A stretch of DNA of 64,000 nucleotides from Gammaproteobacteria bacterium (GCA_965222155.1 CBDCTH010000012.1:1504001-1568000), one strand, 5' to 3'; positions 44,079 to 51,290 are shown, numbered from the stretch's first letter. Numbers and translations are program-made. The notes: generated by a model from the sequence alone, not told the origin.

Positions 44079-45812
44079 ATGAAGCCTTATTTTGAGAACA
44101 TGCAACGATTCGGCAAAGAACTGAAGCAAGGCCGGATCAAGCGTGCGACTCCAAGCATGGAACAGTTGAAGCAGGTTCAAGCGGGAATTGAAGAGCGTAA
44201 GAAAGACGTCGAGAACGCAGGTTTTTCTACGGAGCAAATCAACAAGCGCGGCGCCATGACCGTCTGGCAACGCCTGGAATATTTGATCGACCCAGGAACC
44301 TGGCGTCCATTGCACAGCCTTTACAATCCGATGGATAACGCAAACGGAGCAACCAACGTGGTCGACGGCCTTGCCAAGGTCGCCGGCCGCTGGGCGGTAG
44401 TGATCGGTTTTGATAACAAGGTGCTGGCCGGAGCCTGGCTCCCCGGCCAGTCGGATAATATACTGCGTGTTACCAACCTCGCAAAACGACTTCATATCCC
44501 GCTGATCTGGCTGGTCAACTGCAGCGGAGTAAAATTGGATGAACAGGAAAAGTTCTATGCCAACCGGCGTGGGTCCGGCACACCTTTTTATCGCAACGCA
44601 GAATTGAATCAACTGGGTATCCCGGTTCTAGCCGGTATTTACGGCACAAATCCTGCCGGTGGTGGTTATCACGGCATCAGTCCCACCATACTTCTTGCCC
44701 ATAAAGATGCGAACATGGCCATAGGCGGTGTCGGCATCGTCTCGGGCATGTCGCCAAGAGGGGGCTTCAGCGCGGAGATGCTTGAAGAACTGGTGGAAAA
44801 AACCCGCACGTTCAGCGCCAAACCTCCAGGCCGGGTTGAGACTCATTACCACGAAACCGGATTTTTTACGGCAGTCTACGAGGAAGAAACTGAAGTGCTT
44901 GACGGCATCAAGGAATATATGGAAGCCATACCTGCATACAAACCTCATTTTTTCCAGGTTGCCGAACCCGCCGCGCCGGCATATCCGGCTGACGACCTGT
45001 ATTACCTGTTACCCCATAACCAGAAAGAAGTGTATTCCTTTGACGATATACTATCCCGATTGACGGACGCCAGTGAACACATGGAATTCCGCCCGGACTA
45101 CGGGCCCGAGGTGTATACAGGACTGTGCAGATTTGACGGACTTGTGATTGGCTGTATAGGAAATCGTTCCGGCTACCTCGGTAAAGGTTATCCGGAATAT
45201 GCCGACTATCCCGGTATGGGAGGGAAACTGTATCGTCAGGGCTTGATTAAAATGAACGAATTCGTCACCCATTGCGGGCGCGACCGCATCCCCGTCATCT
45301 GGTTTCAGGATACCTCCGGTATCGACGTCGGCGATCTGGCGGAAAAAGCCGAGTTGCTTGGGCTGGGTCAAGGCTTAATTTATTCCATACAGCAAACCGA
45401 CCTGCCAATGATGCTTGTCGTCTTGCGCAAGGGGACAGCCGCAGCTCACTACCTGATGGGTGGGCCGACCGCAAACCAACACAACGCGTTTACGCTGGGC
45501 ACGCCGGCTACGGAGATTGCGGTCATGCATGGTGAGACCGCAGCAGTTGCCATGTACTCCAGACGTGCGGTCAAGGAAAAGGATGCCGGCAGGCCGCTGG
45601 ATGAGGTCGCCGATAAAATGAACAACCTGGCGGAGCAATACCGGAAACACTCCAGTCCTGAGTACTGTGCGCGTTATGGGCTGGTTGATGAGGTCGTTGA
45701 CCTGGCGGAATTAAGAAATTATCTTACGGCTTTTGCCGGCGCAGCTTATCAGAACCCGCGTTCCATCTGCCCCAAACACCAGTTGCTGCTGCCAAGAATT
45801 ATAAAGGGATAA
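44079..45812 (+). CDS. gcdA: Glutaconyl-CoA decarboxylase alpha (carboxyltransferase) subunit
   Basis: VLAGAWLPGQ, CSGVKLDEQEK.YANRRGSG, GTNPAGGGY, GGKLYRQGLIKMNEFV, RKGTAAAHY. Confidence 0.88.
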   Translation: MKPYFENMQRFGKELKQGRIKRATPSMEQLKQVQAGIEERKKDVENAGFSTEQINKRGAMTVWQRLEYLIDPGTWRPLHSLYNPMDNANGATNVVDGLAKVAGRWAVVIGFDNKVLAGAWLPGQSDNILRVTNLAKRLHIPLIWLVNCSGVKLDEQEKFYANRRGSGTPFYRNAELNQLGIPVLAGIYGTNPAGGGYHGISPTILLAHKDANMAIGGVGIVSGMSPRGGFSAEMLEELVEKTRTFSAKPPGRVETHYHETGFFTAVYEEETEVLDGIKEYMEAIPAYKPHFFQVAEPAAPAYPADDLYYLLPHNQKEVYSFDDILSRLTDASEHMEFRPDYGPEVYTGLCRFDGLVIGCIGNRSGYLGKGYPEYADYPGMGGKLYRQGLIKMNEFVTHCGRDRIPVIWFQDTSGIDVGDLAEKAELLGLGQGLIYSIQQTDLPMMLVVLRKGTAAAHYLMGGPTANQHNAFTLGTPATEIAVMHGETAAVAMYSRRAVKEKDAGRPLDEVADKMNNLAEQYRKHSSPEYCARYGLVDEVVDLAELRNYLTAFAGAAYQNPRSICPKHQLLLPRIIKG

Positions 45813-45880
45813 GGAACCTCTGACAGGTCCCGGGTGGACTTGTTCAGTGCTTACACAACATTACTGGTAAAATCAGGTTT

Positions 45881-46009
45881 ATGGAACAGGCTTTGGTAGT
45901 TTTCTTCAATGGTCTCGGCGGCGTATTCGCCGGCATGGCAATGTTGTATCTTGCCATCAGGCTACTCGCCCTGATGGCCGATAAGCAGACCGGGGACAAG
46001 GAAGAATAA
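45881..46009 (+). CDS. OadG/GcdD-type single-TM subunit, 42 aa (absent from the ORF track)
   Basis: MEQALVVFFNGLGGVFAGMAMLYLAIRLLALMADKQTGDKEE; TAATG overlap with the beta subunit. Confidence 0.8.
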   Translation: MEQALVVFFNGLGGVFAGMAMLYLAIRLLALMADKQTGDKEE

Positions 46010-49296: not shown

Positions 49297-49317
49297 CAAA
49301 ACCAGGGAAATAAATCA

Positions 49318-50127
49318 ATGAATATGCAAGGATTTAAACCGAAACATTTTGACTGGTCATGTTCCGGAGGCATAGCCAAGTTGACCTTGAACAGGCCGGA
49401 GAGAAAAAACCCGCTGACTTTCGATTCCTATGCGGAACTGCGTGATACATTCCGTCATTTAACCGGCGCTGATGATGTCAAGGTCGTTATCATCACCGGC
49501 GCCGGAGGGAACTTCTGTTCCGGTGGCGACGTTCACGACATCATAGGCCCGCTGACGCAAATGGATATGAAGAGCCTGCTTGAATTTACCCGCATGACCG
49601 GAGACCTCATCAAGGCCATGATCCACTGCCCGCAACCCGTTATTGCTGCGGTAGACGGCATTTGTGTGGGCGCCGGCGCCGCTATCGCCATGGCGAGCGA
49701 TATCCGCATCGCTACCCCGGAAGCAACAACCGCTTTTTTGTTTACCCGCGTCGGCCTGGCCGGCTGCGACATGGGAGCTTGCGCCTTACTGCCCCGGATT
49801 ATCGGCCAGGGTCGCGCTGCCGAATTACTGTATACCGGCCGCTCCATGGCGGCGGAAGAAGGGATGCGCTGGGGATTTTATAACACCCTCTCATGCGCCG
49901 ATTCGTTACTCGCTGATGCAGACAAGCTGGCTGAGCAGTTGCTCAGAGGGCCGACTTTTGCCCACGGTATCACCAAGACCATGCTGCGTCAGGAATGGAA
50001 TATGTCCCTTGAACAGGCTATTGAGGCAGAAGCCCAGGCCCAGGCAATCTGCATGCAAACCGAAGATTTTCGCCGTGCGTATACTGCATTTACCAACAAG
50101 GAAAAGCCTGTATTCGAGGGTGACTGA
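49318..50127 (+). CDS. Enoyl-CoA hydratase-family protein
   Basis: [39 protein letters not shown]. Confidence 0.92.
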
Positions 50128-51290
50128 TGGCGGACCGCAGCTACCTGGGCTGGCCTTTTTTTACCCCGGAACACAGGCAGTTAGCCGGGGAACTGGATGA
50201 GTGGGCCGGACGGCAATTGAATCATCCACTGCCGGATGATGTCGATAACGCCTGCAAAGAGTTGCTTGCCCGATTAGCCGAGGCCGGTTGGCTCAATTAT
50301 TCAGCGCCCGCTCCCGGAGATGTTTCCACCCTCCCCCTGGATGTGAGATCCTTGTGTCTCATTCGTGATATCCTGGCGCGCCATTCCGGTCTGGCGGATT
50401 TTGTTTTCGCAATGCAGGGTTTGGGCAGCGGAGCGATTACCTTATTTGGCAACCATACACAAAAAAATGATTATCTGCCCGCGGTCCGCAGTGGTAAAAA
50501 AATTGCCGCTTTTGCCCTGTCTGAGTCGGAAGCCGGTTCCGACGTTGTGGCCCTCGCCACCAACGCCGTTTGCGCTGGGGATGAGTACATAATCAATGGC
50601 GAGAAAACCTGGATTTCAAACGGAGGCATCGCCGATTATTATACCTTGTTCGTCAGGACCGGGGAGCAACCCGGCGCCCGCGGACTGAGCGCCTTCATTG
50701 TTGATGCCGACAGTGAGGGACTCGAAATAGCCGAACGTATCGATGTGATTGCGCCCCATCCACTGGCGCGTATCAGGTTCAAGGACTGCAGGGTAGCGAA
50801 AACAAAACTGCTGGGCATGCCGGGGGACGGTTTTAAAATTGCCATGACCACGCTGGATATCTTTCGTTCAAGCGTCGGCGCGGCCGCCCTGGGTTTTGCC
50901 CGACGCGCGCTGGATGAAACAGTGAACCATGCCGCTACGCGGCAACTGTTCGGCATGGCGCTGGCTGATATGCAAATGACCCAGGCCAGGATCGCCGACA
51001 TGGCTGTGGCCATTGATGCGAGCGCCCTGTTGGTTTACCGGGCCGCCTGGACTAAGGACAGCGGCGCTGCGCGGGTGACGCGGGAAGCGGCAATGGCTAA
51101 ATTGTACGCGACCGAATCCGCCCAGGAGGTTATCGACCAGGCCGTGCAATTATTTGGAGGGCGCGGCGTAACCCGCGGCGAAAAAGTGGAAGAACTGTAC
51201 AGGGAAATCCGCGCGTTGCGCATCTACGAAGGCGCATCCGAGATACAAAAACTGATCATAGCCCGCCAGACCCTGGATAATGCAGGTTGA
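50127..51290 (+). CDS. Acyl-CoA dehydrogenase
   Basis: [36 protein letters not shown]. Confidence 0.92.

Follow-up and report, generated by a model that had tools for sequence, protein, structure and literature searches.

How does a bacterium equipped with a terminal oxidase and many oxygenases come to carry a sodium-pumping decarboxylase of a kind associated with life without oxygen? The question is raised by a run of eight genes at positions 44079-51290 of a 64,000-nucleotide stretch of DNA from a Gammaproteobacteria bacterium (GCA_965222155.1, CBDCTH010000012.1:1504001-1568000), the whole of which is called the window here. The first four genes specify the components of a putative glutaconyl-coenzyme A (CoA) decarboxylase (Gcd), and the fifth an acyl-CoA dehydrogenase resembling Acd, the non-decarboxylating glutaryl-CoA dehydrogenase of Desulfococcus. 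According to a rule given in a passage of PMC5852087, obligate anaerobes use acd together with Gcd and facultative anaerobes use the classical, decarboxylating glutaryl-CoA dehydrogenase (GcdH); the abstract of PMC2881705 terms decarboxylase Na+ pumps exclusive to anaerobes. We consider it likely, with a probability of roughly three in four, that gcdA, the gene of a 42-residue peptide, gcdB, gcdC and the dehydrogenase gene encode a two-step, Na+-pumping exit from glutaryl-CoA, and that this is the sole such route in a genus that by its markers respires oxygen. The reading builds on gene content, orthology, conserved residues, distribution and respiratory markers, from which we infer the substrate, the product, the export of Na+ and the use of the gradient. 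For the occurrence of a Na+-pumping route in an oxygenase-rich, oxygen-respiring gammaproteobacterium, sequence, residues, linkage and distribution appear to give good support.

Components of the module

All eight genes lie on the plus strand, where the first-pass annotation of this DNA had placed them as a close-set run, with spacings from gcdA to the last gene, ACAD2, of 68, -1, 16, 13, 10, 21 and -1 bases in order. The first gene, gcdA (44079-45812), specifies 577 residues with a Carboxyl_trans domain (Pfam, 318 bits) and matches known GcdA structures over its full length, 1PIX from Acidaminococcus with 745.6 bits and 3GF3 with 712 bits. The next-best structure match, to the beta subunit of propionyl-CoA carboxylase, reaches only 124.9 bits, and the mmdA model TIGR01117 gives 126.5 bits against a cut-off of 998.8. 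Because the GcdA structures outscore the best other carboxyltransferase, a grouping with methylmalonyl- or propionyl-CoA enzymes is ruled out, and the glutaconyl-CoA type that had been claimed for this protein stands.

The second gene (45881-46009) encodes a gamma/delta-like membrane peptide of 42 residues, consisting of one hydrophobic helix and an acidic tail. Its match to OAD_gamma, a family named after oxaloacetate decarboxylase (OAD), is 20.8 bits (E 6e-4), under the Pfam gathering score of 27. Despite this sub-threshold match it is a conserved gene, because 22 related loci have a matching open reading frame (ORF), which in 18 cases encodes 38-43 residues, and the homologues vary as a membrane helix typically does. 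The stop codon of the peptide gene overlaps the start of gcdB by one base (TAATG), which suggests coupled translation of the two.

The protein encoded by gcdB (46009-47112; 367 residues) is the predicted carboxybiotin decarboxylase and membrane subunit of the Na+ pump. It matches OAD_beta with 513 bits, TIGR01109 with 486 bits (cut-off 190.6) and Salmonella OadB (6IVA) with 388.6 bits. In the alignment with 6IVA, inspected by eye, it keeps equivalents of OadB Glu40, Asp203, Arg304, Asn311, Ser382 and Asn412, as well as of Tyr229, Asn373 and Gly377; Ser419 is replaced by Thr. The first six are described as essential in the OAD beta subunit by mutagenesis in the relevant part of PMC7274780. A search of the genome with GcdB as query found it to be the sole ORF of the OAD_beta type, and across the genus-level loci of our GcdA scan (L001-L013) it is 83-98% identical. 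The conserved residues, 6/6 of the essential ones, support an intact pump subunit, in agreement with the OadB-type assignment made earlier; the export of Na+ itself is predicted. The fourth gene, gcdC (47129-47350), encodes a minimal biotin carrier of 73 residues (Biotin_lipoyl, 60.6 bits) whose biotinyl-lysine motif, EALKME, occupies residues 34-39. Among 51 related carriers the motif reads ALKM in 30 and AMKM in 20, and in one it was not found.

The fifth gene, acd-like (47364-48521), specifies a predicted non-decarboxylating glutaryl-CoA dehydrogenase of 385 residues. Among solved structures this enzyme comes closest to 3MPI, that of the non-decarboxylating enzyme from Desulfococcus multivorans (339.6 bits, residues 1-376); butyryl- and short-chain enzymes score 315-301 bits and decarboxylating GcdH 186.9 bits. 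The motifs singled out by the first-pass annotation, WR...NM and IVEG, are present as SASWRLPFNM (Arg84, Asn88) and QIVEG (Val363, Glu364), and the four residues align with Arg87, Asn91, Val366 and Glu367 of 3MPI, consistent with the Desulfococcus-type kinship proposed there. The NCBIfam model of the Desulfococcus Acd, NF045552, is the top model for the window dehydrogenase and for none of the eight other dehydrogenases of the genome that were scanned; among all nine acyl-CoA dehydrogenases of the genome (E < 1e-10), the carboxylate-binding Arg is confined to the window enzyme. The Arg, Asn, Val and Glu motifs are shared by the gcd-linked dehydrogenases, being present in 34/34 proteobacterial and 10/10 Desulfobacterota-type sequences. 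A 60-row tree, from which three rows were omitted and in which 3MPI does not figure, places the proteobacterial clade (34 rows; Shimodaira-Hasegawa-like approximate likelihood ratio test, SH-aLRT, 100) next to the Desulfobacterota-type clade (10 rows, 100) as its sister (97), with the classical GcdH clade (8 rows, 100) apart from both. A Tyr-to-Val exchange at this position is said, after Wischgoll and colleagues in 2010, to prevent decarboxylation, as the first-pass annotation also stated. The roles of Tyr and Arg in the decarboxylating enzymes are described in parts of PMC3169403.

Taken together, these genes would support the following pathway. The dehydrogenase, with flavin adenine dinucleotide (FAD) as cofactor, would oxidise glutaryl-CoA to glutaconyl-CoA without release of CO2, Arg84 holding the omega-carboxylate and Val363 replacing the Tyr of decarboxylating enzymes; the electrons would pass through electron-transferring flavoprotein (ETF) and ETF-quinone oxidoreductase (ETF-QO) to quinone and the aa3 oxidase. 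Soluble GcdA would then transfer the carboxyl group of glutaconyl-CoA to the biotin of the 8-kDa carrier, yielding crotonyl-CoA, and membrane-bound GcdB, with its one-helix partner, would decarboxylate the carboxybiotin and export Na+. In this way some 30 kJ/mol dissipated by classical GcdH might be kept as a sodium gradient, and the crotonyl-CoA could proceed to acetoacetyl-CoA, acetyl-CoA or polyhydroxybutyrate (PHB).

Distribution and host genome

Our scan of species-representative genomes with GcdA yielded 80 loci. They come from Gammaproteobacteria metagenome-assembled genomes (MAGs; 76-99% identity to GcdA of the window), from MAGs with Betaproteobacteria or Burkholderiales in the title, Ramlibacter, Sulfuritalea and Sterolibacterium among them (72-77%), and from Desulfobacterales and other Desulfobacterota (64-71%). 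Linkage of the dehydrogenase gene with gcdA and gcdC recurs in gamma-, betaproteobacterial and Desulfobacterota loci alike. In the GcdA tree the gamma- and betaproteobacterial sequences form one clade (41 rows, SH-aLRT 100), with a very long outgroup branch and an unsure root. The pump subunit is more variable on the betaproteobacterial side: in 11 Beta-titled loci where GcdB was found it is 49-52% identical to that of the window, and in two further, Sulfuritalea-type loci (L031, 5159-6586, and L052) the OAD_beta gene beside acd is longer (475-residue ORF) and 31% identical. One contig titled Anaerolineae (L025) agrees with a Betaproteobacteria MAG (L023) in gene order, encodes an identical dehydrogenase and is probably mis-binned.

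The most telling relatives are eight loci, seven Betaproteobacteria- or Burkholderiales-titled and L015, in which a second dehydrogenase, of the classical type (GYRS..MSV, YEG), is found beside the module. One of these module-adjoining enzymes scores 685.6 bits to Burkholderia GcdH (3EOM) and 529.6 to human GCDH; in a Ramlibacter MAG (L048), a LysR regulator lies between GcdH and the module. Because a true GcdH stands next to the module, these eight loci would concern glutaryl-CoA, and this arrangement is the strongest indirect evidence, by gene linkage, for glutaryl-CoA as the substrate.

Elsewhere the two solutions rarely meet. Among 126 genomes of the order (one family), GcdA occurs in 35, among them 22/22 relatives from the genus, and in 7/34 genera, and classical GcdH in 13 (0/22 genus relatives, 9/34 genera); a single genome, G070, has both. 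These are counts over kin genomes and not independent. Across the order, then, GcdA and GcdH nearly exclude each other. In an even sample of the class, GcdA was found in 1/399 other genomes, with one genome unscored; the module is rare overall, core to the genus and patchy in the family. In the genome of the window itself, searching with three GcdH queries for the decarboxylating enzyme, as the first-pass annotation had advised, gave nothing above 194 bits or 33% identity. In this genus, gcd-acd seems to be the only glutaryl-CoA route, to judge from the sequences.

The host genome (4.55 Mb, 12 contigs; by markers 100% complete and 7.3% contaminated) has the features of an oxygen-respiring organism. 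The 3.5-Mb contig on which the window sits also bears its one haem-copper oxidase, of the aa3 type (COX1, 527 bits), and ETF-QO (178 bits), and the genome contains 17 ORFs resembling Rieske alpha subunits, which agrees with the oxygenase-rich host of the first-pass annotation. Profile searches of this genome found no cytochrome bd oxidase over cut-off, nor NarG (best 62.7 against 1084), NapA (234.5 against 930.55), NirK (26.7 against 296.3) or NirS. No member of the HGD-D family was found in it either, which means no class I benzoyl-CoA reductase, for which a search had likewise been suggested, and no 2-hydroxyglutaryl-CoA dehydratase; glutamate fermentation was accordingly rejected as the source of glutaconyl-CoA. 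As candidate users of a Na+ gradient the genome offers eight SSF matches in seven frames. The nqr genes were considered and rejected, the only hit being an RnfD-like, sub-threshold match (140 bits against a cut-off of 350).

Alternative explanations

Several observations weigh against a sole, oxygen-compatible, Na+-pumping exit from glutaryl-CoA, and we discuss them together with the alternatives. Some concern the data themselves. The genome is in 12 contigs, with an estimated contamination of 7.3%, and in the count of GcdH over the 126 genomes, scoring stopped for some at 15 of up to 24 first-look candidates. RNA-library contigs from two studies, 95-99% alike, cover the stretch from ridA, which lies divergently upstream of gcdA, to ACAD2 in patches, and bridge the junctions gcdB/gcdC (46831-47159), gcdC/acd (47307-47459), acd/short-chain dehydrogenase (48468-48712) and short-chain dehydrogenase/enoyl-CoA hydratase (48906-49409); being of low depth, from strains 1-5% different and possibly due to DNA carry-over, they give a weak hint of cluster expression. 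The gene downstream of ACAD2, mtaB, has almost no such cover (51486-52700), and this was not used as evidence for the operon end. Assembly of the complex is a further point. Linker and anchor regions, which a passage of PMC7145394 describes as thought to tie GcdA to GcdB in the Clostridium symbiosum complex, were found neither in the 42-residue peptide nor in the 73-residue carrier (no Ala/Pro stretch, no extra region), and equally short forms of both occur in Desulfobacterota-type loci. Because these regions are missing from peptide and carrier, the assembly of GcdA with GcdB is a prediction.

Other such observations concern oxygen. The genome has four genes of the aldehyde oxidoreductase (AOR) family, one of them in an AorABC-like set, an RnfD-like gene and several unassigned molybdoenzymes, which leave room for a low-oxygen or partly anaerobic life. 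BoxB and BoxC score above cut-off on contig C4, and BoxB recurs in 5/5 single-contig genus relatives. The Box pathway is usually taken as a low-oxygen adaptation. These genes favour an explanation in which identical enzymes are used only under anoxia, for instance inside a host or a particle, much as in strict anaerobes; to speak of an aerobe with an anaerobe's pump would then overstate the contrast. We regard this as unlikely. None of the alternative terminal reductases tested, and no bd oxidase, was found; both 2-hydroxyglutaryl-CoA dehydratase and class I benzoyl-CoA reductase are missing; and no classical GcdH was found that could act under oxic conditions. Because of this last absence, the module must serve under oxygen too, if glutaryl-CoA is formed at all.

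The AOR-family genes were also considered as benzoyl-CoA reductases of the BamB type. This was rejected: their match to a generic AOR model is confined to its N-terminal part, and in place of bamC-I-like genes they have box genes, aminotransferases or PadH/PadI-like subunits as neighbours. From these matches and neighbours we read all four as ordinary aldehyde oxidoreductases. They lie on contigs C12 and C4 (L088-L091): one is in the AorABC-like set with PadH/PadI-like partners, two are next to aminotransferases, and the fourth is placed between boxC and an amidase gene, near a gene resembling the alpha subunit of 4-hydroxybenzoyl-CoA reductase (763 bits, below 994).

The remaining points concern the dehydrogenase. 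Its score of 427.3 bits lies below the equivalog cut-off of NF045552 (470), and because of this we do not file it as an equivalog of the Desulfococcus Acd. The proteobacterial clade is borne on a long stem (0.54), and the window enzyme is only 46-49% identical to its counterparts in Desulfobacterales, whereas GcdA is 67-71% identical. The VEG motif alone does not diagnose the absence of decarboxylation, because it occurs also in benzylsuccinyl-CoA and long-chain dehydrogenases (PMC8360864). In addition, a relative at a similar distance has another substrate: ThnO, 45% identical to the Desulfococcus enzyme, uses a different dicarboxyl-CoA (PMC11659651). The use of Val as a marker by the first-pass annotation therefore holds as a residue match and fails as to specificity. 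It is conceivable, then, that both the dehydrogenase and GcdA have a substituted analogue as their substrate, for example a C5-C7 dicarboxyl-CoA supplied by the three enzymes encoded downstream and, in relatives, by an AbmA-like enzyme. That the family can switch substrate is seen from ThnO, and uncharacterised CoA-ester enzymes surround the module. We nevertheless hold such a substrate to be quite improbable, as the enzymes to which GcdA bears a high similarity have been characterised on glutaconyl-CoA, classical GcdH adjoins the module in the eight loci described above, and the module and GcdH come close to mutual exclusion in the order. Moreover, the module is present in 22/22 genus genomes, while the AbmA-like gene is missing from 7/22 relatives and from the host genome.

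Decarboxylation by soluble GcdA and carrier without ion pumping, as proposed for Geobacter bemidjiensis, where acd and gcdA reportedly occur with no pump subunits (PMC2996986), or a reverse, Na+-driven crotonyl-CoA carboxylase, is very improbable: with a peptide and carrier so short GcdA may not be tethered, but gcdB is present, appears translationally coupled to the peptide gene, keeps all essential residues and is as conserved across L001-L013 as noted above, and net synthesis of glutaconyl-CoA is nothing that an aerobic heterotroph would evidently need.

Neighbouring genes and known systems

Upstream of gcdA and divergent from it lies a RidA-family gene (43506-43898, minus strand; Ribonuc_L-PSP, 82.3 bits). 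RidA adjoins gcdA also in relatives L001-L009, L011-L014, L018 and L020, so that the divergent pairing is conserved in gammaproteobacterial relatives. The 180 bases between the two genes (43899-44078) probably hold a control region, and a ribosome-binding-like motif, GAGGAAAG, precedes the ATG of gcdA. A consensus scan of 43400-52800 gave no excess of promoter-like sites (12 against 7.8 +/- 2.8 expected) or terminator-like sites (9 against 9.9 expected); it established no control site in 43899-44078, where its one match was weak, promoter-like and on the minus strand. On the other side, mtaB (51312-52601, plus strand; TIGR01579, 388.9 bits, cut-off 357), for a tRNA methylthiotransferase, starts 21 bases past ACAD2. 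It occupies the same place in L001, L002, L005-L007 and L013 and is probably an unrelated housekeeping gene.

The last three genes of the run encode a short-chain dehydrogenase/reductase (SDR), an enoyl-CoA hydratase/isomerase family protein (ECH) and a second acyl-CoA dehydrogenase (ACAD2). The SDR gene (48532-49296; adh_short, 208.7 bits) starts with ATG, an alternative start being the upstream GTG at 48499; the nearest NCBIfam models, of 3-hydroxybutyrate dehydrogenase and FabG types, are at or under their cut-offs. ECH (49318-50127; 269 residues) belongs to an uncharacterised subfamily (NF006107, 487.9 bits, cut-off 330), with 3G64, a putative enoyl-CoA hydratase, as its best structure (228.6 bits). 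ACAD2 (50127-51290; 387 residues, Pfam ACAD domains) is of the YEG type, lacks Arg at the omega-carboxylate position and scores 494 bits to 5JSC and 5IDU, putative proteins from structural genomics.

The first-pass annotation had called these genes abm-like, a label that gains some support from an AbmA-type gene in relatives, which the window lacks. In L002, the genes outward from gcdA are those of RidA, MarR, a 797-residue protein combining FAD_binding_3 and Oxidored_FMN domains, Rieske alpha and beta subunits, an SSF Na+:solute symporter and a CoA ligase. An AbmA-like gene of about 800 codons holds that position in L002-L004, L006-L008, L011 and L013; it is found in 15/22 genus relatives and in L048 and L053, and adjoins gcdA in most loci examined. 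In the Ramlibacter MAG L048, the fused AbmA-like protein, ECH and RidA are encoded contiguously next to gcdB, with an ECH homologue 65% identical to that of the window between RidA and the AbmA-like gene. As in the abm cluster of Azoarcus evansii, relatives have the FAD_binding_3 and Oxidored_FMN protein, here beside RidA and gcdA; unlike that cluster, the window and its genome contain no AbmA-like gene (0 matches at E <= 1e-100), the best match in the genome covering 196 residues at 34% identity. None of MarR, the fused protein and the symporter was found in the window, in its 99% twin L001 or in L012. The cluster is polymorphic within the genus in this respect, relatives carrying all three between RidA and the ligase. 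Where they carry the symporter, the window keeps only a 92-residue DUF485 ORF (L002, 1-7759, compared with window 39486-43898).

For its later steps, the 2-aminobenzoyl-CoA pathway is described only as beta-oxidation in the parts of PMC4539516 and PMC3534580 that treat them. The gene linkage suggests that glutaryl-CoA may be a product of this pathway, because most members of the genus have gcd-acd set between RidA/MarR/AbmA-like and SDR/ECH/ACAD2 genes, and Ramlibacter MAGs have it next to AbmA-ECH-RidA. From this a broader picture can be tentatively drawn, one we would put somewhat below an even chance: aerobic Gamma- and Betaproteobacteria would regularly save energy by decarboxylation-driven Na+ pumping, the genus would have given up GcdH, glutaryl-CoA would end a pathway of the 2-aminobenzoyl-CoA type, and the Na+ cycle would be closed, with the symporter of the relatives' clusters importing substrate with Na+ and Gcd exporting the ion.

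Beyond RidA, the minus strand encodes Rieske dioxygenase alpha (41957-43294) and beta (41467-42042) subunits, a DUF485 protein (41188-41466), an acyl-CoA ligase (39486-41159), an SCPx-type thiolase (38333-39499) and a DUF35/ChsH2-type protein (37902-38336), all assigned by Pfam/NCBIfam; an SDR gene also belongs to these divergent upstream genes. In gene kinds, and by description only, 37902-43294 resembles ipfABDEF of ibuprofen degraders, in which dioxygenation takes place on the CoA ester and the ipfDE thiolase takes off the side chain (PMC9195938). Farther away, two RTX-repeat ORFs of 1936 and 736 residues (25923-33894, plus strand; HemolysinCabind, 618 and 219 bits), which also bear a serralysin C-terminal domain, account for an island with a guanine-plus-cytosine (GC) content of 0.66-0.72 in a genome of about 0.5. 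A Rieske alpha gene lies directly beside methylamine-dehydrogenase-like light and heavy chain genes (19089-22245, minus strand; 169 and 171 bits), and an AMP-binding ORF (36053-37060, plus strand) in which the domain is reduced to its C-terminal half (profile 222-384) is possibly the remnant of a CoA ligase. A few kilobases downstream of the module, genes of a polyhydroxyalkanoate (PHA) synthase (PhaC_N, 250 bits) and a thiolase (58419-62618, minus strand) are a possible sink for its crotonyl- and acetoacetyl-CoA.

No paper on the acd and Gcd route in aerobic Proteobacteria came up in a search that covered mostly titles and the starts of abstracts, with subscription journals mostly outside it. 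To that extent the hybrid pathway claimed by the first-pass annotation stands. Its uniqueness does not: the module is core to a genus with aerobic markers and no GcdH found, it recurs in Betaproteobacteria MAGs, and automatic annotation at the Joint Genome Institute (JGI) names many metagenome proteins, 80-86% identical, as glutaryl-CoA dehydrogenase (non-decarboxylating). Enzymes and mechanism are of known kinds; what is unusual is the physiology of the host, and also the apparent genus-wide loss of GcdH, the minimal small subunits and the setting among genes of an AbmA-type pathway. The use of acd and gcd as markers of anaerobic aromatic degradation in metagenomic surveys may mislabel aerobes, small energy increments may matter for slow-growing aerobes too, and for the lower part of the 2-aminobenzoyl-CoA pathway a testable lead comes from the neighbouring genes.

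Set against known systems, the module combines familiar parts in its own way. With the beta and gamma subunits of Salmonella oxaloacetate decarboxylase (6IVA/6IWW) it shares the pump, at the score and with the six essential residues given above; unlike that enzyme, its alpha subunit is a CoA-ester carboxyltransferase and not OadA, and GcdB has no counterpart for about 55 residues of OadB region 60-113. It resembles Gcd of Acidaminococcus and the clostridia in its full-length GcdA match, its OAD_beta-family GcdB, its biotinyl carrier and its one-helix small subunit. In contrast to the clostridial complex, as a passage of PMC7145394 describes it, the carrier is a bare biotinyl domain without N-terminal anchor and Ala/Pro linker, and the 42-residue small subunit is without the C-terminal region; the biotin motif is ALKM, not the MKM of the Gcd reference, and, with no HGD-D family gene found, glutaconyl-CoA cannot derive from glutamate fermentation. 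Classical GcdH (3EOM, 1SIR) has in common with the window dehydrogenase the superfamily, the omega-carboxylate Arg and, for the predicted module as a whole, the overall conversion that turns glutaryl-CoA into crotonyl-CoA, but it bears GYRS..S and YEG and scores only 186.9 bits with it. The closest parallel is Acd (3MPI/3MPJ), which works with Gcd in Desulfococcus multivorans and Syntrophus aciditrophicus. Here the window enzyme belongs to a separate proteobacterial clade under the equivalog cut-off, and its host, unlike Desulfococcus, has an aa3 oxidase and oxygenases, with no class I benzoyl-CoA reductase found; all five genes form one run here. The dehydrogenase gene is nevertheless gcd-linked, as in Desulfobacterota MAG loci, and the predicted two-step logic is identical to the one outlined for Desulfococcus and Syntrophus in a passage of PMC5852087.

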